Positions 3,871 to 57,472 of a DNA stretch of 64,000 bases are shown piece after piece; the stretch's first letter is position 1; every line of letters starts with the position of its first letter. The position numbers were made by a program, and so were the translations under genes. The notes under the pieces were generated by a model. The model was given only the letters and a program-made list of their open reading frames with translations, was not told the origin of the DNA and ran no database searches. Source of the DNA: Candidatus Omnitrophota bacterium (lineage in GTDB: Bacteria > Omnitrophota > Gorgyraeia > Zapsychrales > Zapsychraceae); NCBI GenBank assembly GCA_015233495.1, contig JADFXQ010000001.1, positions 68,045 to 132,044 of the forward strand, in the 5' to 3' direction.

Positions 3871-4208
3871 TTCGAACTCCCCATCTCCTTCAAATGCGCT
3901 CGGGCCATATCCGTCCAAAACCCTTCGGAATATTTTTTAGTCAGCCGTTCGTACACTTCCTGCGCTTCCCGCGTCCGACCGCAAGCGCGGGCGCTTTGTG
4001 CCCAATAATATAAAGCAGCAGCCGCCATAGGATGATCTGGCTGTTCATTGGCGAATTTCTGATAAAACTGCCGCGCCTGTTCATAATGTTTACGGTCATA
4101 CGCGGATTGCGCCAAATCATATGCGTCCGGCGAAACATAGCGGGTCGACGCGCATCCGGATAGGATAGCGATCCCCAACAGCAGCTCTAACCAAAAAATT
4201 TTTTTCAT
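3867..4208 (-). CDS. small lipoprotein, TPR-like helical (YbgF-like) domain
   Basis: Signal peptide plus lipobox LSGCAS, then helical repeat-like sequence. Start taken as MKKIFW. Confidence 0.45.
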   Translation of the reverse strand: MKKIFWLELLLGIAILSGCASTRYVSPDAYDLAQSAYDRKHYEQARQFYQKFANEQPDHPMAAAALYYWAQSARACGRTREAQEVYERLTKKYSEGFWTDMARAHLKEMGSSN

Positions 4209-4861
4209 TTCCATTGCTCCTCAATCCATTGCGCAGCTTGCATATAATCCCGGGTATCCGGAACAATGCTGTCTTCTCCCTCCCGGATCGTCTTAACCTT
4301 CCAACCCAAATCATAAAGAAACTGATGATCAGCTTGCGTTGCCTGCTCTTGATTATCCTTGATCCGTCGGATCAAAACGGCCCAGTGACGTATCCGCGCT
4401 TGATGACCACTTTTATAACGCTCCGGAATGGCCCCGCCTTGAATAACCACCGCCCGAAACAGCGCGCTCTGTTCAAAAAGCAAGGCGTACGCCATTGTCG
4501 CCCCTTCGACAAAACCCGCCGCAATGATTTTTTGCGGGTTTACCGGATACGAATGCCCAATTTGTTTAAGCGTGCCGGCTAACCGGCGGCTCTCCCAGGA
4601 AAGACTGCTGATTTCCGGCTTGATATTTTTCTCCGCGTAAATTAGCCATTTGTAGGTTTCAGCCACATTTTTCCAAGCGCCGATCATCGCCCAGGCATCC
4701 GGCTTCTTCGAAAAAACCGCGACTAAAGGATAGGTTCTTCCCACCACAACGCCCTGGGGAATATACAATAAATAGTCTTTGGTATTGGTCAGCCGCGGCA
4801 CCTGCGCCAAAGCCGGACCCGCCCAAAAAAGCAACATCAGCAAACCAAAGCTTATTTTCAT
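4205..4861 (-). CDS. secreted alpha/beta-hydrolase-like protein (phospholipase/carboxylesterase family-like, nucleophile Ser apparently replaced)
   Basis: Signal peptide MKISFGLLMLLFWAGPALA. AAGFVEGATMA aligns to the esterase elbow GFSQGGAMA, but with V in place of Ser. Confidence 0.3.
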   Translation of the reverse strand: MKISFGLLMLLFWAGPALAQVPRLTNTKDYLLYIPQGVVVGRTYPLVAVFSKKPDAWAMIGAWKNVAETYKWLIYAEKNIKPEISSLSWESRRLAGTLKQIGHSYPVNPQKIIAAGFVEGATMAYALLFEQSALFRAVVIQGGAIPERYKSGHQARIRHWAVLIRRIKDNQEQATQADHQFLYDLGWKVKTIREGEDSIVPDTRDYMQAAQWIEEQWK

Positions 4862-5020
4862 AAAACCTGCCTCAACGGTGTAAGTTGTGACGATTATACC
4901 CTATCCCAGAAGCTCTGAAAAGCACTAAATCTGCCGCTAAAATTTCCGGCGAAAAATCGGTCAGCATGTTATAATTGAAAAAATATTAAAGCGTGCCGCC
5001 CCAGCAAAAGGAGCCTGTTT

Positions 5021-5437
5021 ATGGAAACGTACATTTCTTTGTCGAAAAAATGGACCGCGCAGCAAAAAGAAATCTGGGCGGTGATTGAAGACCATTGGCA
5101 ATGTCTCGTCGAAGGAAAGACCGAACAATTCATCCAATACATTCACCCCGACTTTGTCGGATTCGGCCATGAAAGCCCTTACCCGGTGGATTTCGGCTGG
5201 CTGAAAGACTGGGTTGGTTTTTGGTCAAAAAGCACAAAATTTCTCACCCACGGCGTGCGGCCTATCCACATTGTTATTCACGACAATATCGCAATCGTGC
5301 AATACTGTCTGTTTACTATCGTTAAACACGATGTCAGCGCGCCGACCAGCTCCATCCGGCGTTACACCATGACCTGGAAAAAAACAAACGGTAAATGGCA
5401 AGTCATTGCCAGCCATAATAATCTGCAAGGGGAGTAA
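5021..5437 (+). CDS. SnoaL-like / NTF2-fold domain protein (DUF4440-like)
   Basis: 138 aa, with a WxxxxxxG...H...D NTF2-like pattern. One of few plus-strand genes, with an SD-like AAAGGAG upstream. Confidence 0.5.
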   Translation: METYISLSKKWTAQQKEIWAVIEDHWQCLVEGKTEQFIQYIHPDFVGFGHESPYPVDFGWLKDWVGFWSKSTKFLTHGVRPIHIVIHDNIAIVQYCLFTIVKHDVSAPTSSIRRYTMTWKKTNGKWQVIASHNNLQGE

Positions 5438-5438
5438 T

Positions 5439-5551
5439 ACAGGACACAAGTATTCTAAATTTTAATTCTAGTTTTTAATAGAAAATCAGGCAGACACAAC
5501 AAATTTTTAAATAAATGTAAACGACATTACTTGTGTCTTGTGTCTTGTGTC
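5439..5551. repeat. GACACAAG/CTTGTGTC terminal-inverted-heptamer intergenic element, copy 1 (forward)
   Basis: Left end is acaGGACACAAGta. Core is aaaatcaggcagacacaacaaattttt...aaatgtaaacgacat. Right end is taCTTGTGTCTTGTGTCTTGTGTC. Lies between convergent genes. Confidence 0.8.
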
Positions 5552-5555
5552 TTTT

Positions 5556-6326
5556 TTAAAACCGCACTACCACCCCAGTCACAATTCCACACGCTTCGTT
5601 TTTATTGACAATCGGACTTTTCTTGATATTGGTTCCCAGGAATTCCAGGTCGAAACGGGTAACTAAAAAACACGTTTTCGACAACCCCATATTAAACCCG
5701 AGATTGACAAAAGGATTCCACGCGGCGTCGCCTTTATACGACGAACGCGACGCATTGGCTTCATAATCCCGCACGCCATAATAATAATCCACGAACATTT
5801 TGCTTTGCCAGGACGCGCCCAGGGACGGAACAATTTCAAAAAACGACCCTTTGAATTTTTTCGTCAAAGCCAGAACGCCTTCTTGCCCGCCGTAGACGTT
5901 CAACACATCCGTCGAAACTTCCACGCTTAAAAACAAATCTTCCCCCCACGGGATCGTCCGCTCGACCCGGCCGCCGGCTGCCAGGGAATTATGGCGGTCT
6001 TCCATGCCGGCAAAAGCTTTGGAATCATCCGCCTGATAACCCGTCAGCTGAGGCGACAAAAAAACATCCGCGCGCCAATCGTCATTTTCAAAAGCCACCC
6101 ATCCGCCTTTCAACCCCTGAATAAAAAAATTTCCCTGCCGCCATTTGATTATCGGAATCGGCGTCACTGACGGCTTCATGTCCTCATACGGCCGGAAAGC
6201 AGTATAAACCCCCATACCCGCCACATTAAATTCTCCCTTCTCCCGAGGCGCATCCTGCGCCCATCCGAGGTTTGCGCAGCATAACAGTGACAAGCAAAAT
6301 TCCATCACAAGTTTCCGTGACAACAT
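5556..6326 (-). CDS. mipA: MipA/OmpV family outer-membrane beta-barrel protein
   Basis: Signal peptide, alternating beta-strand pattern, and a C-terminal aromatic (..VVRF) typical of OMPs. Size and motifs resemble MltA-interacting protein. Confidence 0.55.
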   Translation of the reverse strand: MLSRKLVMEFCLSLLCCANLGWAQDAPREKGEFNVAGMGVYTAFRPYEDMKPSVTPIPIIKWRQGNFFIQGLKGGWVAFENDDWRADVFLSPQLTGYQADDSKAFAGMEDRHNSLAAGGRVERTIPWGEDLFLSVEVSTDVLNVYGGQEGVLALTKKFKGSFFEIVPSLGASWQSKMFVDYYYGVRDYEANASRSSYKGDAAWNPFVNLGFNMGLSKTCFLVTRFDLEFLGTNIKKSPIVNKNEACGIVTGVVVRF

Positions 6327-7253: not shown

Positions 7254-10200
7254 TTGAAACGGCCCGCTTCCCTTTTTTTCGCGCTTTTATTTGTCCTGAT
7301 TTTTGCCTGCGGATTATTTTATATCCGGAATGTTTTCATCCCGATTCACTTAAAACAGATCCTGATCAACCAAGCTTCGGCTTTTCTCAAACGCCGGATT
7401 GTGGTCGAAGATATTGATTTCCGAGTCCCGCAAGGCTTCCGGTTTAAAAGATTAACCGTCTTTCGCCAAGACGATCCGCAAAAGCCGTTTATCCAAGTTG
7501 ACGAAATCACTTTCGGCTTTTTCTTTCCCGACTTTTTTCATCAAAGGTCCGTTTATATCCCCTCTTTGAATATCAACGGCCCCTCCATTTTCCTGCGGCG
7601 CGATGAAAAAAACGGCTGGAATTTCGCGGATCTGCTCCCCGGCTCCGGTAAGCAAGGAATAAAAATCAACCGTTTCGGTTTCCGCGTATCCACCCGTCGC
7701 TTCCTCGTGAAAAATGGAAAAATTGCTGTCGAAGACGCATCGGTCAATCCGCCGCTCATAGAAAGCATCAACAATATCAACGCCGATGTCCGGCTCAGCT
7801 CGACGCGCCGCGTCATTTTTTCCGTAGACCTTGCTATTCCCCAACGCCAAGCGGATCTGCAACTGAGCGGAGCATACGATCTGAATCAAAAAAAATTATC
7901 CGCTACCCTGGCCGGCCGCAACCTCCCGCTCGCCGCTTATTTCCCAACCTTTCACCAAACTTGGCCTGTCGCTTTCCCAGCCGGCATACTCGCGTCCCTC
8001 AAAACCGCAGTCACTTACGAGAACCAGACACTCTCGCTCATCGGGGATTTCGCCGTGCGTCAACTGCAGATTGCGTCTTTGCCATCCGCGCTTTTCTCGA
8101 TCCGGCAGATCACCGGCCAAAAGTATGCCGCGTCTTGGGACGGTAAAAGTTTCTTAACGAAAGGCAATCTCCTCCTTTCCGATTTAGAAATAAAATCCGG
8201 GACTGAAACATTTACCGCGGCCAACCTGACCTCCGGAGACTTATTCTGCGGCCGAACGCCTAATAAAATCGGCTTAAACGGCAGCTTCACCGTCGCCAAT
8301 GCTGTTTTTCAATCCGCGGGTCAGCAAGTTCAAGGCAATGTGATCTTCGATAATTTCAGAATCGTCCGGGAAGCAACCGGAATCAAAATCAAATCGGATA
8401 TCAAAATTCCGGATCTAACCGTCACCCGTGAAAACGGCTGGCGCGCCAGCGGCAACCTTACTTTATCCAAATTGCGGGCAGCCATCAACCCCGCAGAAAA
8501 AATCTATTCCGTAAAAAGCGGGATAACTTTGCTCAATTTGTCAGTCCAAAACGCCCAAGGATTAAATATCAAAACCAACGCCAATGACCCGGATCTCCGG
8601 CTCGACGGAAAAAATGCCGCTTGGAAAATCACCACCTCGCCGCAATTGATGAACTCCTTGGTTAAAACCCCGCAAGGCTTTGAATTCCGCGGCAGTGCGA
8701 CCTTTGATCCCACCCAACTTGATTTTGCCAACCATATCCTCACCATCGCCGGTAAAACGGTTTGCCATATTCCCACGGCAAAAATCGGCGAAAACCGCGG
8801 ATTCCAAGGCAATCCCGAGATCACGTTCAGCGTCCGCTCCGATCCGGCCCAAGAAAATCCCTGGGATTTTCAAAGCTCGGTTCTTTTGTCAGACGCAATC
8901 ATTGATGGCGTTCCGGGATTAGGCCAGATCTCCCGCGTCAGCGGTCTGCTCCAATTACGCCCGAATTCCATCCGCGCGGAAAAATTGGATCTCCGGGTCG
9001 CCAATTATGACCTGACGCTTTCCGGCGCGCTGCGCGATTTTGACAATCCCTATGCGGATCTTAAAGTTGCCACCCCCCGCGTCGATTTGGAATATCTTTT
9101 AGCCCGGCTTCCCCAGGATATACTTGCCAAAATTCCCGGCAAAATCGCCGGCCCCGCCGCGGGTGAAGTGAGCTTCAAAGGTTTAATCAGCCAGCCTGCG
9201 CAAGCCGAGATTACTGCCGCTATCTCTCTCGACGGGTTGCAGATTGCCCTGCCCGCTTTGCCGGGTCCAATCGACGCGGTGAGGGGAAAGATCCATTACA
9301 ACTCCCGGCAAACAACCTGGGAACAATTAACTGCGACATTCCAAAACCGCGACTACACGCTCAACGGGAAATTCACCCGCACACTCAAACCCTCGATTGA
9401 TCTCGAACTGCAAGAAAAAGATTTGTATTTTACCGCTAAAGTCAATCTGCTCAACCAGGTATTTCAAATAGACGCCTGTCAAGGCCGGTATCTGACCAGC
9501 GATTTTGACTTTAAAGGCGATATCAAATTAGACCCGTCCGGGAATCATTTCTTTGATATGCGGACCAATCTCGCCCTGAATTTAGCGGATTTGGCTTTAC
9601 TTCCCTACCCGCCTCTGCAAGACGCGGCCCGGCAGATTGATCCGCAAGGCGAGATCAGATTCAACGGTTTATGCCGCGGCCATATCCGCGATTGGCAAAA
9701 ATGGGACATAAAATATAAGGCAAATGCCGATGAAATCAAACTCAAAGGCATCCCCTTGACCGGCATGGTGGCAGACTTTGAACAACGGGGCGAGTATATT
9801 AGCAAATGCCTGCTCAGCGCGGATGTTTACGGAGGCAAGTTGAACCTGAAAGCAACGGCTGATCTGAAAAACAACAAGATTTTAAGCGATATTACCGCGA
9901 ACGTGGCGAATGCGGATTTGGCAAAATATACCGCGGAAAAAAAATTAAAAAACGAACAGATTGCCGGGACAGTCAACGCCTTTCTCCATGTCATCGGCCC
10001 GCTCAACGCCCCCAAATCGCTTAAAGGACAAGGCACACTGAAAATCACCAATGGTTATCTCTGGCGGTGGGACATTCTAGACGGGTTGTTCAAAGCCCTC
10101 TTGATCCCGGAATTTCAAAATATTTATTTCACGGGGGCGAACGCGGATTTTAAAATTAACAATGGAAAAATCGGCACGGACAATTTGAAACTGACCGGCA

Positions 10201-10472
10201 ATGTTCTCTCGCTGGCCGGAACCGGCTGGATGGATTTTAACGGTAATCTGCGGTTCAATATTGTCCCGCATTTTGACATTACGCTGATCGAACAATCCCA
10301 ATCTCTGCAGAAGATCCCCACGCAAATCATCAGTCAAGCCGTGCAAGCCAAAATCAGCGGCACCTTGGCCAAACCCGCTTACCTCATCGAACCCTTGCCG
10401 TTAAAAGTCCTGGAAGAAACCACGGATATTATCCGACAGGGCGTGCAAAATATTCTTGGAGAGTTGTTTTAA
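7254..10472 (+). CDS. AsmA/TamB-like large envelope protein
   Basis: 1072 aa. N-terminal TM anchor, then an AsmA-like N-domain (IVVEDIDFRVPQGFRFKRLTV) and a long beta-rich repeat body. Confidence 0.55.
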   Translation: MKRPASLFFALLFVLIFACGLFYIRNVFIPIHLKQILINQASAFLKRRIVVEDIDFRVPQGFRFKRLTVFRQDDPQKPFIQVDEITFGFFFPDFFHQRSVYIPSLNINGPSIFLRRDEKNGWNFADLLPGSGKQGIKINRFGFRVSTRRFLVKNGKIAVEDASVNPPLIESINNINADVRLSSTRRVIFSVDLAIPQRQADLQLSGAYDLNQKKLSATLAGRNLPLAAYFPTFHQTWPVAFPAGILASLKTAVTYENQTLSLIGDFAVRQLQIASLPSALFSIRQITGQKYAASWDGKSFLTKGNLLLSDLEIKSGTETFTAANLTSGDLFCGRTPNKIGLNGSFTVANAVFQSAGQQVQGNVIFDNFRIVREATGIKIKSDIKIPDLTVTRENGWRASGNLTLSKLRAAINPAEKIYSVKSGITLLNLSVQNAQGLNIKTNANDPDLRLDGKNAAWKITTSPQLMNSLVKTPQGFEFRGSATFDPTQLDFANHILTIAGKTVCHIPTAKIGENRGFQGNPEITFSVRSDPAQENPWDFQSSVLLSDAIIDGVPGLGQISRVSGLLQLRPNSIRAEKLDLRVANYDLTLSGALRDFDNPYADLKVATPRVDLEYLLARLPQDILAKIPGKIAGPAAGEVSFKGLISQPAQAEITAAISLDGLQIALPALPGPIDAVRGKIHYNSRQTTWEQLTATFQNRDYTLNGKFTRTLKPSIDLELQEKDLYFTAKVNLLNQVFQIDACQGRYLTSDFDFKGDIKLDPSGNHFFDMRTNLALNLADLALLPYPPLQDAARQIDPQGEIRFNGLCRGHIRDWQKWDIKYKANADEIKLKGIPLTGMVADFEQRGEYISKCLLSADVYGGKLNLKATADLKNNKILSDITANVANADLAKYTAEKKLKNEQIAGTVNAFLHVIGPLNAPKSLKGQGTLKITNGYLWRWDILDGLFKALLIPEFQNIYFTGANADFKINNGKIGTDNLKLTGNVLSLAGTGWMDFNGNLRFNIVPHFDITLIEQSQSLQKIPTQIISQAVQAKISGTLAKPAYLIEPLPLKVLEETTDIIRQGVQNILGELF

Positions 10473-11141: not shown

Positions 11142-13394
11142 CTACCTCCCGGAAATTGACGTTGGAATCCCAATCGGAACAATCCGCAATATCATCCCCC
11201 GAACTCCGGAAAAATTACCTCTCTGAAATTCCGCGATCATCGCCGAGGTAAATTTTAAATCTATGCCCTGCCTCTCTCGCGTGACATCAACCGTGATATT
11301 AAAGTTAATCCCTCCGGGATTCATTCCCGCGAGCGGACTGGATAACACTTTGACATCCGCATTCTCCAATCGCGTCACTTCGCCATTTTTCAATTCCAAT
11401 TGCCGCCATTGAATCACAGAAACACCCTCCTCATGAACACGAGCAACTGTGTTTGACCGCATCGCAATACGCAAAGCGCTCATCTGAATCGCATGGCCAA
11501 AAAGAATGACCGTTTTGCCTCGCAGGTGGGTATCTTCGGCTATCTTCTTTAAAAAACGATACTGCCGCGCAATGAGGTCCAAATATCTTTCACCCCGGTT
11601 AAATGAAGCCAAAGCGCTCCCGGTGATATCATTCATGCCGGTTGTGCTCCCTCCCGGCCAAATACTCACACGTGTTGTTTCCATGTCTCCGGTCATCTTC
11701 CGGGGGGAAAGCCCAACCGACTGCATTTCTGCATGCAATGCTTCCGGCGGCTGCGCATAAGCAAAATGCGTCGCATCACCCATATCCATTTCATTGATGC
11801 CAGGTTCCACAGACACCGGAAGATTAACTCCCAACTCCCGCTTCACTAAATCCAAAAACGGCTGTGCCGTTTGTTGCGCACGTCGTAAACCCGAGGTGAT
11901 AACCACAACTTTCCCGGCAGCAATGTCGGCGCGATAGATATCGAACAATTGTTGACTTGTTTGTTGCGCCTGTTGCACTCCTTTGTCATTAAGAGAATCG
12001 AGAAACTCCTCATTTGCTTGCCCGTTTAAAACAAAATAGCGATTCGCATTCGTATGCCCGTGCCGGACCCCGACCAACTGAACGCCGCTCAGATCAACCC
12101 AAGGCTCGTCGGAAGTATAGGCGATTTCACCTTTTGTGTTGACCTGCAATTTACCATCAGTTGCGTTAACTGCTGTCCAACCTTGCATAGCCGGGCGAGT
12201 GGTCCCAACCGCCAACACAGATACCCGCGCGCGATCGCCGTCTTGACCGGATTTGTCCGTAGGAGAAGATGATCCAGTGATCGTTAAATTCTCTATGCCT
12301 AACCGCATATTTTCTCCGCCGGAAAAATATTGACGCGCAATAGTATCTTCACTCAACGGGTCTGTATCTTCTTTAATATAATTGAACACCCCTTTTTGGT
12401 AAGCCTGTAAGTATTGTTGATATATTTTCTCTTTCACCAAGGGATCATCTGTTAAAACGCCGCCGGTCTTCCCTTTATTACTGTACACTTGATTCAACAA
12501 CGCGTCTTTAAGCGCGATCTTATACCAAGAAGCCAGAATCATGCTATAAAACATCTGCCGTAGCGGAGCAAAATTTTTCCCTTCATTCACTTCCTTTTCA
12601 ATTTCGGGAATGATGATTTCTTTGACAGCCGCAGCAGCCATACTATGAGTTGAAATACGCGGCCGACGCTCAATATGAACCATACCGGTTCGTTCATCTT
12701 GGTCCCGCATTCTCAATCGGCCATCCGCCGCCAAAGCGGCATAATCTTCTTCTAACATTACCTTCAAATGGGAGCCCACAACAAAAGCCGTATGATCCCG
12801 TTCCCGAACCTTCGCATGCTCCGCGACAATCCAAACCTTATTGAATGTATCGACTGGAATATCAGTTGCCCCAAATTGCTTTTCCACCTTGGCATAGACC
12901 CGATCCCAAAAAGTCTTTCCTAATTGGCTATTAGGATACATCAATGACGCAGTCAATTGCTTCAAAATATAATCTTGTGCCAGCATATCCCGGCCAAGTA
13001 TTGTCTTCCCCAACTCCGCCGGAATGATTTTGTCCTTTTCGTATGGAGACAAATTTACCCAAAGATCATCTTCCTTGATCGTTAAAGCTGCTAAAAAATA
13101 TTTAATCAATTTCTGTGATTCTGTTTTGAACTCCGCGCTATCAATCTTGATCTGTGAGGAACCCGTATCCATAATAAAATCAAACAAAAGCGGGTTGTCA
13201 GCATGGATTTCAACGCCCTTCATGATAACCGGCATATAAGCTGGGTTGGAAAGAACCCTGGCTCCCGGCGCCGGCAAAAGCAAGGCCTGAGCCAAGGCCG
13301 CCGGAGAAAGCAGCCCGGAAAAAATAAATCCCCCAATGATCCCCACGCAGATCAATCGAAATATCAATGTCTTTTGGAATGTTTGCCTCTTCAT
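11142..13394 (-). CDS. large secreted protein: conserved N-terminal ~450-aa domain of unknown function fused to C-terminal histidine phosphatase (PGAM-family RHG) domain; paralog of 55163..57472
   Basis: Signal/anchor MKRQTFQKTLIFRLICVGIIGGFIFSGLL. N-domain LIKYFLAALTIKEDDLWVNLSPYEKDKIIP... is shared with the second paralog. C-terminal VGVRHGHTNANR has the RHG motif. Confidence 0.5.
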   Translation of the reverse strand: MKRQTFQKTLIFRLICVGIIGGFIFSGLLSPAALAQALLLPAPGARVLSNPAYMPVIMKGVEIHADNPLLFDFIMDTGSSQIKIDSAEFKTESQKLIKYFLAALTIKEDDLWVNLSPYEKDKIIPAELGKTILGRDMLAQDYILKQLTASLMYPNSQLGKTFWDRVYAKVEKQFGATDIPVDTFNKVWIVAEHAKVRERDHTAFVVGSHLKVMLEEDYAALAADGRLRMRDQDERTGMVHIERRPRISTHSMAAAAVKEIIIPEIEKEVNEGKNFAPLRQMFYSMILASWYKIALKDALLNQVYSNKGKTGGVLTDDPLVKEKIYQQYLQAYQKGVFNYIKEDTDPLSEDTIARQYFSGGENMRLGIENLTITGSSSPTDKSGQDGDRARVSVLAVGTTRPAMQGWTAVNATDGKLQVNTKGEIAYTSDEPWVDLSGVQLVGVRHGHTNANRYFVLNGQANEEFLDSLNDKGVQQAQQTSQQLFDIYRADIAAGKVVVITSGLRRAQQTAQPFLDLVKRELGVNLPVSVEPGINEMDMGDATHFAYAQPPEALHAEMQSVGLSPRKMTGDMETTRVSIWPGGSTTGMNDITGSALASFNRGERYLDLIARQYRFLKKIAEDTHLRGKTVILFGHAIQMSALRIAMRSNTVARVHEEGVSVIQWRQLELKNGEVTRLENADVKVLSSPLAGMNPGGINFNITVDVTRERQGIDLKFTSAMIAEFQRGNFSGVRGMILRIVPIGIPTSISGR

Positions 13395-13695: not shown

Positions 13696-14031
13696 CTATT
13701 GAGCTGAAAGAATCTCTTCAATGTATTTATTTAAACTATCGCCATTACGCAGGGCTTTAATCGTTATGGTCTTGTGAAGATCCGGGGAAATTCTTAACGG
13801 TATCTTCCCGGAAAATTTCCGGGACATAATCTGCGGCGGAATCGGCCGGCCGTCTTTTAACAAAATAGCTTCCATCTCCGCGGCCACGGCGCATAACTCT
13901 CGGAACACTTTAGATTCATCTTTTCCGTGCACCCCCCCTAAAAACAGACCCGGCGCCGTCCCAATATAGCATTGGTCCTCATCCGACCATTCCACGACTT
14001 TTAAATAAGCGGGCCTTTTTTGTTTAATCAT
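13696..14031 (-). CDS. hicB: HicB family antitoxin
   Basis: HicB-like RNaseH-fold N-terminal region and a C-terminal RHH-like tail. Start MIKQKRP overlaps the hicA stop. Confidence 0.65.
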   Translation of the reverse strand: MIKQKRPAYLKVVEWSDEDQCYIGTAPGLFLGGVHGKDESKVFRELCAVAAEMEAILLKDGRPIPPQIMSRKFSGKIPLRISPDLHKTITIKALRNGDSLNKYIEEILSAQ

Positions 14032-14222
14032 TTCTGCGCCTCCCACAAAGCAATTTTAACCGCTTGCTCTTGATACGGTAAAGCATCATCGCCCAATTGA
14101 CCGGAAATAACAACCGCCGGGTGTAGCGGGTGAACAAACTTCCGATGACTGCCCTTGCCGCCCCGGTTAGCAAACCCCATTTTTTCCAAATCCCTGATCA
14201 ATTCGCGAATTTTGCGTAGCAT
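14028..14222 (-). CDS. hicA: HicA family mRNA interferase toxin
   Basis: 64 aa, ...GFANRGGKGSHRKFVHP... The GSH-containing YcfA/HicA motif. Confidence 0.7.
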   Translation of the reverse strand: MLRKIRELIRDLEKMGFANRGGKGSHRKFVHPLHPAVVISGQLGDDALPYQEQAVKIALWEAQK

Positions 14223-53578: not shown

Positions 53579-54469
53579 TTATTTCTTCAACAGCTTCTTA
53601 TTCTGCGGAATTGTAAGATAATTTTCCCGACTGACAACCAAGTCTCCGCTTTTTTGTTCCAATTCTTTTCTGGCATTGCCGGCCACACTTCCACCGTCAA
53701 TGGCTGCCTGCTTATTCGAATCAAAACCCTGGGAATTACGGCCGCGGGCGATTTTTGTCGTTGATGCTTCCCCAAGCATGGAGAAAATCAATTCCAAATC
53801 CGTCATATGATCCCGCAAATTCTGACGACTCAATCCCTTATATTTTTTATACTCGGAAGGGGTCATCCCAAATGCCGCTTTTGAAATTTCTGCAGTTAAA
53901 ATCGCGTAATTCTGCTGGTCTTTAATACCTCGTTTGTTCCATTCATCCGTCAATTCCTCCCTAATGGCAATACCGCGCACGCGTTTTTCAATCCACTCCT
54001 CCGAATATCCTTTTGCTTTATAAATCGCCCTTAAGCGTTTCATAGCCAGTTCGGGGTCTTCAATTTCCTGAACGCGCTCATAACCAACTTTAGCCAACCA
54101 GCGTTTAAATGGTTCTGCTTTGGGCGACGGTATCGTCTGAATAATACGAAATAAGCTTTCAGTATTAGCACAGTCTGTCAAATATTCCTTGCCGTCAGAT
54201 GCCATTAATTTCAGTTGTCCGATTTTTTCGGACACCTCAACATACCCTTCTTGAATCAATTTTTTCTTTAAATCGCTCCAATATTTCCTGGGTCTTGCTG
54301 TTTCAGTGAGCGCCTCCACAACATCAATAACCGAAAACCACCATTCATTCTGATGAATCGTTTTCCTAACCTGCTTTCCTTTAAAAACAGCAATTTTGGT
54401 TACACTGATTTCATTGCGCATCTCCGCCTCCCCCCATCCAAAACGATTCAAAAATATCAACCACAACAA
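53579..54469 (-). CDS. Bro-N domain protein, DNA-damage-inducible protein D (DinD)-like
   Basis: Bro-N-like N-terminus (VFKGKQVRKTIHQNEWWFSVIDVVEAL). The C-terminal region parallels E. coli DinD (...AILTAEISKAAFGMTPSEYKKYKGLSRQNLRDHMTDLEL...). Confidence 0.55.
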   Translation of the reverse strand: MLWLIFLNRFGWGEAEMRNEISVTKIAVFKGKQVRKTIHQNEWWFSVIDVVEALTETARPRKYWSDLKKKLIQEGYVEVSEKIGQLKLMASDGKEYLTDCANTESLFRIIQTIPSPKAEPFKRWLAKVGYERVQEIEDPELAMKRLRAIYKAKGYSEEWIEKRVRGIAIREELTDEWNKRGIKDQQNYAILTAEISKAAFGMTPSEYKKYKGLSRQNLRDHMTDLELIFSMLGEASTTKIARGRNSQGFDSNKQAAIDGGSVAGNARKELEQKSGDLVVSRENYLTIPQNKKLLKK

Positions 54470-54641: not shown

Positions 54642-57472
54642 TTATCTGGCCCGGACCGGATGACCTCCCACGGATCCTGCGCATAAAAACTCCGGCAAGG
54701 TTTGGGACAGCGGAAACACTCCGAGAACGTCTGGCGACAAACCCCGGAAATCGGCAACACCCGCTGGGTCAAACCGAAAGGTCCAAGACCCGCCGCGGGT
54801 CTCGACGCCTTCCTCGAGTAGATCAATTCCGCCGTTGGCTGGCTGCCGTCCTACGGGCGAAGCAGCAGGTTTTTCTGGAACGACCAACGGCAAATAAACC
54901 GTGAATTTTGAACCTTTTCCCAATTCTGAAACAGCTTCGATATTCCCATACATTTGATGCACAATCATGTAAACAGCTTCCAAGCCGAGCCCTGTTCCGG
55001 GAACATCTCCGACATTGCCGGCCCGAAACCCCCTGTAAAAAACTTTTTCGATTTCACCCGACGGTATACCAATGCCCGTGTCCTCAACTTCCAAAACCAT
55101 GCACGGCTTCTCTGACTGACCGGAGTATTTGAGCTGTTTTGAAGCTTTGGCGAGTCGAACTGTCACCCCCCCCGTGGTGTGTATTTGATCGCGTTTTGCA
55201 GAAGATTATCCACAACCACTTTCAGCCAATTAACGTCACAACGCGCCACAAACATATCCTCATCCGTTAATTCCACGCGAAAATCCAATCCTTTCGCAAC
55301 TGCCCGACTTCTCCCAGCCGCGACACTTGCGGCAATCAATGGCGTGACATTTCTCGTCTGAAAATCACTGCCTTGCTCTAATAAACCAATAAAAAGATCC
55401 GACGCGTCCATCACATAATTTTCCGACGCGTTATATTTTAAATACTGCTTTAATGATTCCATGGCCTGCGGCGATTGAGCATCTGCCGCGTGAATTAGCT
55501 CTAATAACCGGGGAATATGTCCATATATAAATGGATATATCCCCAAGGGAAATGCATCCACTCCGCCATTGTGCCTCAATGAAGTCATAAAATCACAAAA
55601 ATCGTTATAACCGTTTCTCTTTAATAAATCCCGAACACCAAACCAAGGGGCGTTTCCCTGCCCAATGAGATGATTGAGCCGCCCTGCGAATGCCGCTTTT
55701 TCCGCCTCGGTAATTTCGCCGTTGGTCTGAACCCCAGGCAAAGAGCGTCCGGCATAAATCTGAATATATCCGTCTTCCTTTTCCTGCCATTGTTTAAAAT
55801 CCGGAGACGCCATAACCCCGGAAAACATCCCGGATTCGCGCATCGCAACTTTCGCTTGAGTCCGCTTGCGTTCCTCGGCGTCCCGATCTAATCCGCCGAA
55901 TATTTCATTCTTATGAAGAACTAAAGATGTCAGTTCTTTTTCACTAAAACCAAAAGAATAATGAAAATCATAAGAAAAATCCCTGCCCCACCAAATCATC
56001 ACTTTGTCCACTTTAAAATCTCTGGCTGTTTCCCGCAAAAATGCGTCCATTCGTTGTCTGATCCGGGGTTCAACAATCCCGAATACTGCCGGCAATGCCC
56101 TAATCGCGTCAACGTGGATTTTGATTTCATCCCCGGCTTGACGAATTTGCGGATAAGCGTCCCGCTCAAAAGCCTGAATGCCTTGTTCTTGCAATACCTT
56201 TAATCCTTTAGCAAACGCGGCCTGCAGTCCGGGATATAATGCTCGCATCGCCTTCATATGCGCGGTCAATCTGTCCCTGGCTTCCTTAATTGTTAACCGC
56301 CGCGGTTCGGCGGAATACGTCGGACTGGAGGAAGCCGAATCAAAATTCAGCCGCACCGGAATTTCGCGGTACCGGCGCGTTGATCCGTTTTGCGGAATTT
56401 GGGCAGGAGAGGAAACCGTTTCAATCGCCGCTGACGCCAGAGCCACACCGCCGGAAAAATATTTCCGCGTCACGCTTTCTTCCGTGAGCGGGTCATAATC
56501 TTCCTTGGTCGTGTTATACACGCCTTGTTTGAAGGCCGCGATGTATCGGTTATACATTTTCTCTTTAATGGTTTTGTCCGCGAGGTCAATGCCGACAATC
56601 TTATTTTGGTCCGCGTAAGACCGGCCGAGGATGCTGTCTTTGAGTTTGCGTTTAAACCAAGAAGCCAAGATAAACGAATGGACCACCTGGCGCAGAGGGG
56701 CAAAATGAGCGCCTTCATTGACTTCTTTTTCCAAGGCCGGGATAACAACCTCGCGGGTGATTCGGGCGGCAATGTCGTCCATCGGGCAAGACGGCGCACG
56801 CGCGACAGCGGGTTTTGCCGCGCGCTGACCGATATAGTCTTGCTCCAACATGACTTTTAACCGGCTTTCAACAACATAGGCCGTGGCCTCGGTTTTTGTT
56901 CTTCCGCCCTCGTAAACCACTGCCTTGTCGAGAACAATCCAGACTTTATTCAATGTCTCGATCGGGATATCAGTCGTGCCATAACGCTGTCGCGCATAGC
57001 CGTAAACCTTTTCCCAGAATTCCTTGCCGACCGGGCTATCGGGATTGAGCAAAGACGCGGTGATTTGTTTGAGGATAAAATCCTGGCTTAAAAGATCGCG
57101 GCCCAGGTCCGTGACTGCCAGGCTGTCGGGGATGACCCGGTTTTTTTCATAAGGCGAGAGATTCACCCAAAGATCTTTTTCCGGAACGGTCAACGCGGCC
57201 AGAAAATATTTGACGAGTCGGCCGGATTCCGTTTTCAGTTTTTCCGGCAAGTAATCCGCGTTCCCGACATCCAAAATAAAATCCAATTTAAACGGATTAT
57301 CTGCGTAGACCTTGACGCCTTTCAACAAAGGCGGGCCGAATTCCAGGCTCAATGCCGGCCGGCTGACGGTCGCCGGCAGTTGCGCCAGTCCCTGACCCGC
57401 AACCGGATCAACCTGGGCGCTGATAAACGCCGATAAAATGAAAATGGCAACAATGCGTCGCGTCATAAACAA
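54642..57472 (-). pseudogene. large secreted sensor-like protein (paralog of 11142..13394) with C-terminal GHKL/histidine-kinase-type ATPase domain, split by frameshift in a G8 (plus-strand C8) homopolymer at 55166..55173
   Basis: ORFs 55163..57472 and 54642..55166 are in different frames. Inserting one G gives the continuous protein ...NLLQNAIKYTPRGGVTVRLAKASK...VEDTGIGIP...FYRGF...GTGLGL...GSKFTVYLPL (N, G1, F, G2 boxes). The N-terminal ~450 aa are homologous to 11142..13394. Confidence 0.55.

Follow-up and report, generated by a model that had tools for sequence, protein, structure and literature searches.

Two open reading frames (ORFs), A and B, lie in a 64,000-nucleotide stretch of Candidatus Omnitrophota DNA (assembly GCA_015233495.1, contig JADFXQ010000001.1, positions 68,045 to 132,044; hereafter the window), and they are in all likelihood paralogues within a very large, seemingly undescribed and almost Omnitrophota-only protein family of common plan. 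That plan, of which we are similarly confident, comprises a Sec-type signal peptide, a conserved N-terminal domain (the N-domain, or N-cap), a linker with the motif D-x-A-M, one to many cargo modules and a C-terminal tail of about 60 residues (the C-cap). As the best overall explanation we propose an exported family of modular carriers or effectors, a reading in which we place about even trust; effector delivery is offered more tentatively as its working mechanism, and we infer that the proteins pass beyond the periplasm, that they are processed at D-x-A-M and that they function as effectors. A first-pass annotation of the same DNA had instead seen in the two proteins an undescribed signaling module, in which a histidine phosphatase (A) and a histidine kinase-type ATPase (B) are carried by a common exported sensor scaffold.

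The homology that this annotation had recognized between the two N-terminal regions is borne out by BLASTP (45% identity and 65% positives over 371 residues, E 6e-104), and tblastn of the window recovers the A and B copies of the N-domain and no third. The shared region is shorter than the roughly 450 residues first proposed: it consists of the signal peptide plus some 330-365 residues and ends at about residues 360-405 of A. A profile of the N-domain matches A at 12312-13382 with 529.5 bits in a six-frame scan of the window, and B at 56444-57466 with 435.7 bits. Used as a query, the first 378 residues of A retrieve more than 1377 proteins with identities of 48-65%; where a source is named, it is nearly always a metagenome-assembled genome (MAG) of Candidatus Omnitrophota or Omnitrophica. 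Scanning one genome for each GTDB species with a sequence pattern yielded at least 580 loci confirmed by tblastn; the 79 loci kept, up to three of which come from a single genome, are all labeled either Omnitrophota or 'uncultured Planctomycetales', the latter label being attached to MAGs derived from co-assembly. Profile searching of 1.84 billion representatives at 50% identity returned 8400 proteins, 6826 of them at E<=1e-30, and in every one of the 150 matches listed, which span lengths of 420-4969 residues, the N-domain occupies residues ~1-400. Among 2.9 million viral contigs, three carry it. We define the family by a signal peptide, the N-domain (WVNLSPYE...FNKVWI...EKEVNEG..F..LRQ...YFSGG) and the C-terminal tail with its GGIDL motif; A has all of these features, and B has the first two undiminished, with a weak tail and a broken frame. 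No paper in the literature searched describes the N-domain, the tail or the motif, and both main Omnitrophota genomics papers are silent on the family, so that the module can still be called undescribed as far as the profile libraries and literature searched are concerned.

Across sequences that are about 50% identical, the N-domain keeps approximately 45-60 invariant positions, many of them polar, including the motifs WVNLSPYE, GRD, DY.LKQ, FNKVW, EDY, EKEVNEG, LRQ, W.K and YFSGG. Its AlphaFold2 model, built from 62 sequences (predicted local distance difference test score, pLDDT, 78; predicted template-modeling score 0.71; 142 residues above 90 in pLDDT), is of alpha/beta type with long helices and three beta-hairpins. 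The earlier view that the domain belongs to no assignable family was upheld: Pfam, NCBIfam, PADLOC and PHROGs contain no match to it, profile searches of PDB sequences gave nothing meaningful, and Foldseek comparison of the model found no fold match in the PDB (best E 0.41, TM <=0.17) or in BFVD (best E 0.18). Neither a sequence-profile nor a fold match links it to known periplasmic sensor or solute-binding domains (Cache, CHASE, PBP/SBP). A match to huntingtin in the PDB profile search falls on variable linker columns and was discarded as spurious. As modeled, the N-domain is a candidate new fold.

The N-termini of the family share a pattern of a K/R-rich start, a hydrophobic core with few charges after it, usually an A-x-A, and then a near-invariant LNLPxPGxMV. 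Among 310 N-termini, a 12-residue window with Kyte-Doolittle hydropathy above 1.6 is present in 99% (mean 2.60), the n-region is net positive in 98% (mean charge +3.0), and a strict A-x-A lies within 14 residues of the P.PG motif in 45%. By the positive-inside and -3/-1 rules, such signal peptides would be cleaved and the proteins exported; in A, the predicted cleavage point A33-L-A35|Q36 reads as a fit to the family consensus A-x-A-Q-x-x-L-x-L-P-x-P-G. A and B each have one N-terminal hydrophobic segment and no further transmembrane (TM)-like segment, as first noted, and the predicted topology again puts the ATP-dependent domain of B among the exported parts. A second TM segment after the N-domain was considered as a general rule and rejected, as 198 of the 256 members with at least 150 residues after the N-domain (77%, A and B included) have no TM-like segment past it. 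Very hydrophobic leaders of the DsbA type favor co-translational export that depends on the signal recognition particle, and by analogy the hydrophobic leaders of this family would let fast-folding domains of cytoplasmic type cross the membrane. In only about 8 of the 256 members does a TM-like segment lie directly after the N-domain (25-60 residues past it in P0022, P0046, P0050, P0064, L035 and L009, often after GKGFLGKGF), where it would return the cargo to the cytoplasm.

The cargo that follows the N-domain is extraordinarily varied. The C-terminal regions of 96 members, A and B among them, fall into 75 unrelated BLAST components, so that the earlier suggestion of unrelated C-terminal domains swapped onto a common N-domain is borne out by the architecture survey. 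Pfam was searched in the cargo of 46 members from the genome loci, 47 representatives and two long members, as well as through precomputed annotations, with the top 25 families considered per scan; each cargo family occurs in only one or two members per scan, and most members have no cargo match. Signaling and phosphatase domains (HD, HD_5, PP2C, HATPase_c, Response_reg, His_Phos_1) stand beside DNA-binding HTH domains (HTH_3, Crp, ParB, Xre and Tnp_4), repeats (TPR, HEAT, ankyrin), the chaperone-type DnaJ and a wide range of enzymes: methyltransferases, NUDIX, HAD, PGI, adenylate kinase (ADK), ROK, aldose epimerase, proline dehydrogenase, cytidine deaminase, Peptidase_M48, DUF218, enoyl-CoA hydratase (ECH), SDR/KR, AMP-binding, UDPG dehydrogenase and GHMP kinase. 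The recognized cargo thus consists overwhelmingly of domains that normally work in the cytoplasm. Two very long members, P0263 (4969 residues) and P0326 (4553 residues), carry ECH, AMP-binding, KR/SDR, UDPG dehydrogenase and GHMP kinase modules behind the same N-domain, which hints at a continuum with the published giant multi-enzyme proteins of Omnitrophota.

ORF A illustrates how such a module is joined to the caps. Its assignment as a phosphatase stands: Pfam PF00300 (His_Phos_1) matches residues 443-559 with 60.4 bits against a cutoff of 21.7 (E 2.5e-16), the match spanning only model positions 4-103 of 194. The further claim that the protein ends in the enzyme domain does not hold, since its end is formed by the conserved tail, which the tail profile matches at residues 689-749 (66.8 bits, E 1.6e-22; 62.1 bits at 11145-11330 in the window scan). 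The phosphatase motifs can be read as R444-H445-G446, R505 (GLRRAQQTA), E535 and H634 (LFGHA), the last assigned from the family signature because the C-terminal half, with its insertion of about 70 residues, lies outside the profile match; the catalytic residues appear, on this reading, to be present. An NCBIfam scan of the cargo gave weak sub-threshold cobC/gpm matches and none at equivalog level, and a PDB sequence search with it gave no match. Among 5.8 billion protein clusters the cargo has one homolog (P0369, 43% identity), whose alignment begins at residue 405 of A, while the alignment of A with its closest N-domain relative (L086/L087, 64% identity) covers residues 6-405 and then ends. 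The sequence at this junction is R400-P-A-M403-Q-G-W: homology of the N-domain ends and homology of the cargo starts at residue 405, right after R-P-A-M403, so the motif marks the module boundary. The gene with the only homolog of this cargo (L082:332-1497) also encodes the family tail and has neither N-domain nor signal peptide; it is split by a frameshift, adjoins a GNAT gene and has FGSS where A has FGHA, the catalytic histidine being lost.

The D-x-A-M motif recurs at module junctions in many members of the family. It is enriched in the linker after YFSGG and in the 25 residues before GGIDL, being present in 97 of 165 linkers and 30 of 57 pre-tail segments; the AM dipeptide reaches 1.40 per 100 residues in the 70 residues after the N-domain, against 0.29 elsewhere, and has Asp at position -2 in 104 of 162 cases. 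Within the interior cargo of members longer than 900 residues, 107 D.AM occurrences compare with 12.1 expected from composition, and P0292 and P0323 have nine each, 140-730 residues apart, against 0.3 expected. In L086 (~4080-5800; the same in L087), a module of about 130 residues (…DIDFIQVWFANDPQATNMISIKAWDRGFP…) occurs twice and each copy is bracketed by xAM...SDAAM, a paired arrangement in which D-x-A-M is seen as a module boundary. The long members themselves are of two types, P0292 and P0323 with nine copies of D-x-A-M-[LM]-[TV], and P0326, P0261 and P0263 with none or one; the latter three bear a variant tail (…IPLP…IEGF.PVIINITPV). This split suggests subfamilies with different junction chemistry.

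The tail itself, which the first-pass annotation had overlooked along with the frameshift in B, follows the profile PGGIDLN..L.L....G..I.F.DPAM...F....F.G..PVI.NI.P..N...LLGL over some 60 residues. It stands at the extreme C-terminus of about 42 of the 45 members from genome loci that are complete at the 3' end, and is found in 107 of 128 further representatives, within 60 residues of the end in 104; one BLAST component of 18 C-terminal regions is held together solely by the last ~60 residues. Pfam and NCBIfam, sorting-domain models included, contain no match to the tail at E<=0.1 to 1, and a PDB profile search gave a single match at chance level. Searching the 5.8 billion clusters with the tail profile returned only proteins of 63-156 residues, mostly 3' fragments on short or nanopore-style contigs, a result that is uninformative on how often the tail occurs without the N-domain. 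At two loci, extra cargo-tail ORFs that have no signal peptide or N-domain follow a complete, tailed member on the same strand: a 147-residue ORF (P0204) at 6001-6444 of L081 (NCBI), and a Response_reg ORF plus a tail ORF at 6137-7222 of L084 (JGI). Unrelated contigs share a tail subtype, GGIDLT.ANMNLQTQN..IKFHLDPA.L.QLQNAPGFVPVIINIQP, with very little visible variation; it occurs in P0140, P0149, P0170, P0172, P0189, P0192, P0200, P0204, P0209 and P0220 and in almost all of the short tail-only ORFs inspected.

ORF B deviates from this plan through a frame break inside its ATPase domain. Of the boxes first attributed to the 769-residue ORF, the N-box is indeed there (NLLQNAIKY, residues 756-764), followed by a stop inside the run ccacGGGGGGGGtga; G1, F and G2 lie in the next ORF, in the -1 frame, and no single uncorrected frame of B holds a complete catalytic ATP-binding (CA) domain with N, G1, F and G2. 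Once a G is added, the sequence becomes ...AIKYTPRGGVTVRL... and HATPase_c is matched in full (2-109 of 111 positions, 75.9 bits); either that addition or a -1 slip would bring back ...TPRGGVTVRL.... Pfam matches HATPase_c positions 37-109 of 111 in the second part alone, and the match to the NCBIfam PnpS model breaks off at model position 305 in the first part and picks up at 305 in the second; the intact, frame-corrected product would have about 943 residues. Nor does B end in the ATPase, as had been thought: a degenerate copy of the tail (…ANGGIDLLEEGVETRGGSWTFRFDPAGVADF…) comes after the enzyme domain, its profile match being weak (8.3 bits at joined residues 878-919 in a two-sequence search, 3.6 bits in the six-frame window scan). 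The CA domain is of the class-I histidine kinase type, with chains of WalK/YycG and VicK-like kinases as best PDB sequence matches. The reported lack of an H-box was confirmed, no HisKA-type Pfam match being found on the joined protein even at E<=10; there is only a loose SLRH motif at residues 631-634. A search for relatives of B's cargo among 457 family proteins matched the ATPase domain of one protein and nothing else.

The G8 run at the frame break is in itself unremarkable, as about one run of eight or more of each base is expected by chance at the GC content of the window. B may be either a homopolymer sequencing error, a genuine pseudogene or a phase-off allele; a -1 slip on G GGG GGG, which would give the same RGGV product, is less likely. 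Several relatives on nanopore-style contigs are likewise fragmented, which fits a sequencing error, whereas the weak tail of B and its lack of D-x-A-M motifs lean towards decay.

Omnitrophota are widespread, uncultivated and ultra-small bacteria, thought to be predators or parasites, and a family of about 8,400 clusters, with its Sec leader, two invariant caps and payloads that differ even among close relatives, is an obvious candidate for their interaction repertoire, as well as a handle on the machinery that recognizes its caps. In the mechanism that we propose, the highly hydrophobic signal peptide would send the whole chain over the inner membrane, and the invariant N-cap and C-cap would act as export, targeting or translocation parts recognized by conserved partners encoded elsewhere. 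The cargo would be interchangeable payload and D-x-A-M a module junction, probably a processing or recombination site, or both. Payloads would most plausibly act inside or on the surface of a host or prey cell, as a modular effector repertoire of predicted predators or parasites; another cell is the most plausible site of action because these payloads need ATP, NAD(P), CoA or DNA. Most Omnitrophota have been proposed to be predators or parasites (PMC10066038), and giant Omnitrophota proteins with similar multi-enzyme content have been proposed to be extracellular, with a role in predation (bioRxiv 10.1101/2023.11.21.568195); the delivery reading fits both. More speculatively, and with considerable doubt on our part, the caps would constitute a hitherto unrecognized, phylum-specific delivery module that exports a huge and rapidly reshuffled set of cytoplasm-type enzymes and DNA-binding proteins, processes it at D-x-A-M and translocates it into cells of the host or prey. 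In that case, the giant 'archaeovorin' proteins could lie at the extreme end of the same delivery system, and the N-domain itself may be a translocator or a processing enzyme.

Several observations weigh against effector delivery. The cargo families listed include no toxin-family Pfam match, and many cargos resemble housekeeping enzymes (ADK, PGI, ROK), which would be odd for effectors. In about 23% of members the cargo contains TM-like segments, few of them directly after the N-domain, so subfamilies may not all have the same topology. Because some cargo-tail units (L082, P0204) have neither N-domain nor signal peptide, the tail cannot be linked to export in every case. With its many invariant polar residues, the N-domain could instead be enzymatic, for example a processing enzyme. 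The full-length AlphaFold2 model of A (60 sequences; mean pLDDT 59.8, poor outside the N-domain) is uninformative on contact between N-cap and C-cap. Finally, the flanks of the 79 loci contain no linked secretion machinery, transporter, chaperone, immunity gene or recurrent partner; the 271 flanking ORFs, when clustered, gave no family in more than four loci, a recurrent-neighbor test that would miss variable immunity genes.

The last of these points agrees with the main rival explanation, which we consider unlikely, namely that the proteins are exported but kept by the producing cell. The caps would then anchor or polymerize them in the periplasm, outer membrane or surface coat, and the cargo would serve the cell's own extracytoplasmic physiology, adhesion or surface variation. 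A signal peptide without other TM segments, repeat-rich cargo (TPR, HEAT, ankyrin) together with Peptidase_M48, the absence of immunity-like neighbors from the locus flanks and the strong conservation of both caps, suggestive of binding to a conserved cellular structure, would all suit such an envelope-resident scaffold. However, HTH domains, response regulators, ADK, DnaJ, ROK, AMP-binding and CoA- or NAD-dependent enzymes would find no substrate or energy there, and such extreme turnover of cargo is more reminiscent of a repertoire shaped by conflict than of a structural layer.

The cytoplasm-type cargo would also be explained if the hydrophobic segment stayed uncleaved and held N-domain and cargo on the cytoplasmic face, for instance as an enzyme scaffold, and topology predictions for long Omnitrophota proteins have been reported to be unreliable (bioRxiv 10.1101/2023.11.21.568195). 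Such membrane-tethered cytoplasmic proteins are nevertheless improbable, given the positive n-regions in 98% of N-termini (mean +3.0) and the A-x-A that often follows the core: with positive charge before the core, the positive-inside rule leaves the C-terminal bulk outside.

We regard as very improbable, and as largely refuted by the architecture survey, the signaling module of the first-pass annotation, in which the N-domain would sense extracytoplasmic signals, with phosphatase and kinase-like ATPase as its alternative outputs of opposite phospho-chemistry. Both cargos in the window do come from phospho-transfer superfamilies, other members bear Response_reg, PP2C, HD/HD_5 or HATPase_c, and the few members with a TM-like segment right after the N-domain would have a classical sensor topology. 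But the same N-domain precedes hundreds of unrelated, overwhelmingly non-signaling cargos, because of which it is best seen as coincidence that the two cargos in the window are a phosphatase and a kinase-like ATPase; even A's closest N-domain relatives (64-68% identity) bear cargo unrelated to its own. Without a second TM segment, the outputs of A and B would lie on the same side as the 'sensor'. B lacks a dimerization and histidine phosphotransfer (DHp) domain with its H-box, and none of the scanned neighbors (MiaA, SPOR/TPR, Bro-N, HflX) is a response regulator. A sensor would, moreover, leave the C-tail and the D-x-A-M junctions without a role.

That the fusions are chimeras created by gene calling or assembly, or that the family consists of selfish cassettes in decay which serve no purpose in the cell, is scarcely credible: B is frameshifted, the coding sequence of several relatives on nanopore-style contigs is split over many ORFs, and L082 has both a frameshift and a lost catalytic histidine, but in independent assemblies from different sources, thousands of intact single ORFs run from signal peptide through N-cap and cargo to C-cap, dozens of residues invariant across ~50%-identical sequences point to purifying selection, and A is intact, its catalytic motifs apparently in place.

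In functional terms the family would be analogous to polymorphic toxins and MARTX proteins, from which the logic of polymorphic payloads framed by conserved trafficking parts is known; the tests for the defining domains of those systems all failed. Polymorphic toxins (CdiA-CT, Rhs, MafB, LXG) combine a conserved N-terminal trafficking part with hypervariable payloads, the junctions being marked by VENN in CdiA and DPxGL in Rhs. The present family resembles them in the hypervariable payload after a short junction motif (here D-x-A-M), in close relatives that differ in payload, in orphan payload modules downstream (L081, L084, as in contact-dependent inhibition (CDI) and Rhs loci) and in the occurrence of several paralogues per genome. 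It differs in that A, B and the families listed for 93 further members give no TPS, PAAR, LXG, RHS or MafB-N match, that no recognizable toxin payload was identified among the cargos listed and no immunity gene among the recurrent neighbors, and that a conserved tail follows the payload, modules are often serial and the N-domain has no known fold. MARTX toxins use a type I secretion system without a Sec signal peptide, carry glycine-rich repeats and a cysteine protease domain, and release effectors that act in the target cytosol; they share with the family conserved N- and C-terminal regions around an exchangeable effector array with inter-effector processing sites, for which D-x-A-M is a candidate here, whereas our scans found no glycine-rich RTX-type repeats or cysteine protease domain and the family has a Sec-type leader.

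An N-terminal Sec signal combined with a conserved C-terminal element on unrelated proteins is also a property of type IX secretion system proteins with their C-terminal domains, of type XI secretion system cargo and of autotransporters, but no Por_Secre_tail-type match was found, and ~60 residues are too few for an autotransporter barrel. Nor does the tail show the TM segment plus Arg that is typical of CTERM sorting signals, and a large conserved N-domain is present in addition. The 'archaeovorin'-type giants share the phylum, a signal peptide and an N-terminal region without recognized domains, as well as NUDIX, HAD, HATPase_c, methyltransferase and TPR/HEAT content and a proposed extracellular role in predation (bioRxiv 10.1101/2023.11.21.568195; 10.64898/2026.06.07.730766). 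The giants, however, exceed 30,000 residues, have many TM helices and SecA-like domains and lie beside loci resembling type II secretion systems, whereas the family spans 0.5-5 kaa (thousand amino acids), mostly has no TM segments and is dispersed among housekeeping genes. As for two-component kinases and PGAM/SixA-type histidine phosphatases, the CA domain of B aligns with the WalK/VicK type and A passes the His_Phos_1 threshold, but B has no DHp domain, second TM segment or adjacent partner regulator, and in both A and B the domain is exchangeable cargo.

For the window, the results remove the phosphatase/kinase signaling pair as a tempting but wrong reading. For the family, they raise the question of how and why domains that depend on ATP, NAD, CoA or DNA cross the inner membrane. 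Simple markers for annotating members, delimiting modules and searching proteomes for processing products are available in the D-x-A-M junctions and the GGIDL tail. The coordinates of A, B and selected neighbors are collected below.

Table 1. Parts of ORFs A and B and neighboring genes in the window. Positions are those of the 64,000-nucleotide stretch; aa, amino acids.
Feature	Position	Strand	Description
ORF A	11142..13394	-	750 aa; complete member: signal peptide, N-domain, linker, histidine phosphatase cargo, C-tail
Predicted Sec-type signal peptide of A	13290..13394	-	aa 1-35; K/R-rich n-region, hydrophobic core, A33-L-A35|Q36
Conserved N-domain of A	12312..13289	-	aa 36-361; unknown family and fold
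Linker of A	12186..12311	-	aa 362-403; degenerate G386-D-R-A-R and recognizable R400-P-A-M403
Cargo module of A	11322..12185	-	aa 404-691; divergent PGAM-type histidine phosphatase with ~70-aa insertion
C-terminal 'GGIDL' tail of A	11145..11321	-	aa 692-750; profile alignment from aa 689
ORF B part 1	55163..57472	-	769 aa; signal peptide, N-domain, ~370 aa without recognizable domain, ATPase N-box
G8 run (C8 on + strand), frame break of B	55166..55173		only G/C homopolymer of >=8 bases in the window
ORF B part 2	54642..55166	-	174 aa, -1 frame; G1, F and G2 boxes, then degenerate C-tail
HATPase_c (CA) domain of B across the frameshift	54885..55237	-	joined aa 746-863; 75.9 bits
Degenerate C-tail of B	54729..54842	-	weak profile match; position and motif order fit the family tail
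AsmA/DUF748/YhdP-like protein	7254-10472	+	1072 aa; putative envelope lipid-transport type; converges on the Ham1 gene
HicB-family antitoxin-like gene	13696-14046	-	immediately upstream of ORF A
Bro-N domain protein	53579-54469	-	directly downstream of ORF B

Within the window, both genes are surrounded by housekeeping genes, a gene content that, together with membership in this family, would by itself point to an Omnitrophota chromosome. ORF A sits between Ham1/RdgB, downstream, and the HicB-like gene, with RNase PH beyond it, and the AsmA/DUF748-like gene lies on the other strand. ORF B is flanked by MiaA and a SPOR/TPR protein on one side and by the Bro-N protein, HflX and ClpB on the other, Bro-N being a domain of a type typical of phage and mobile-element regulators.

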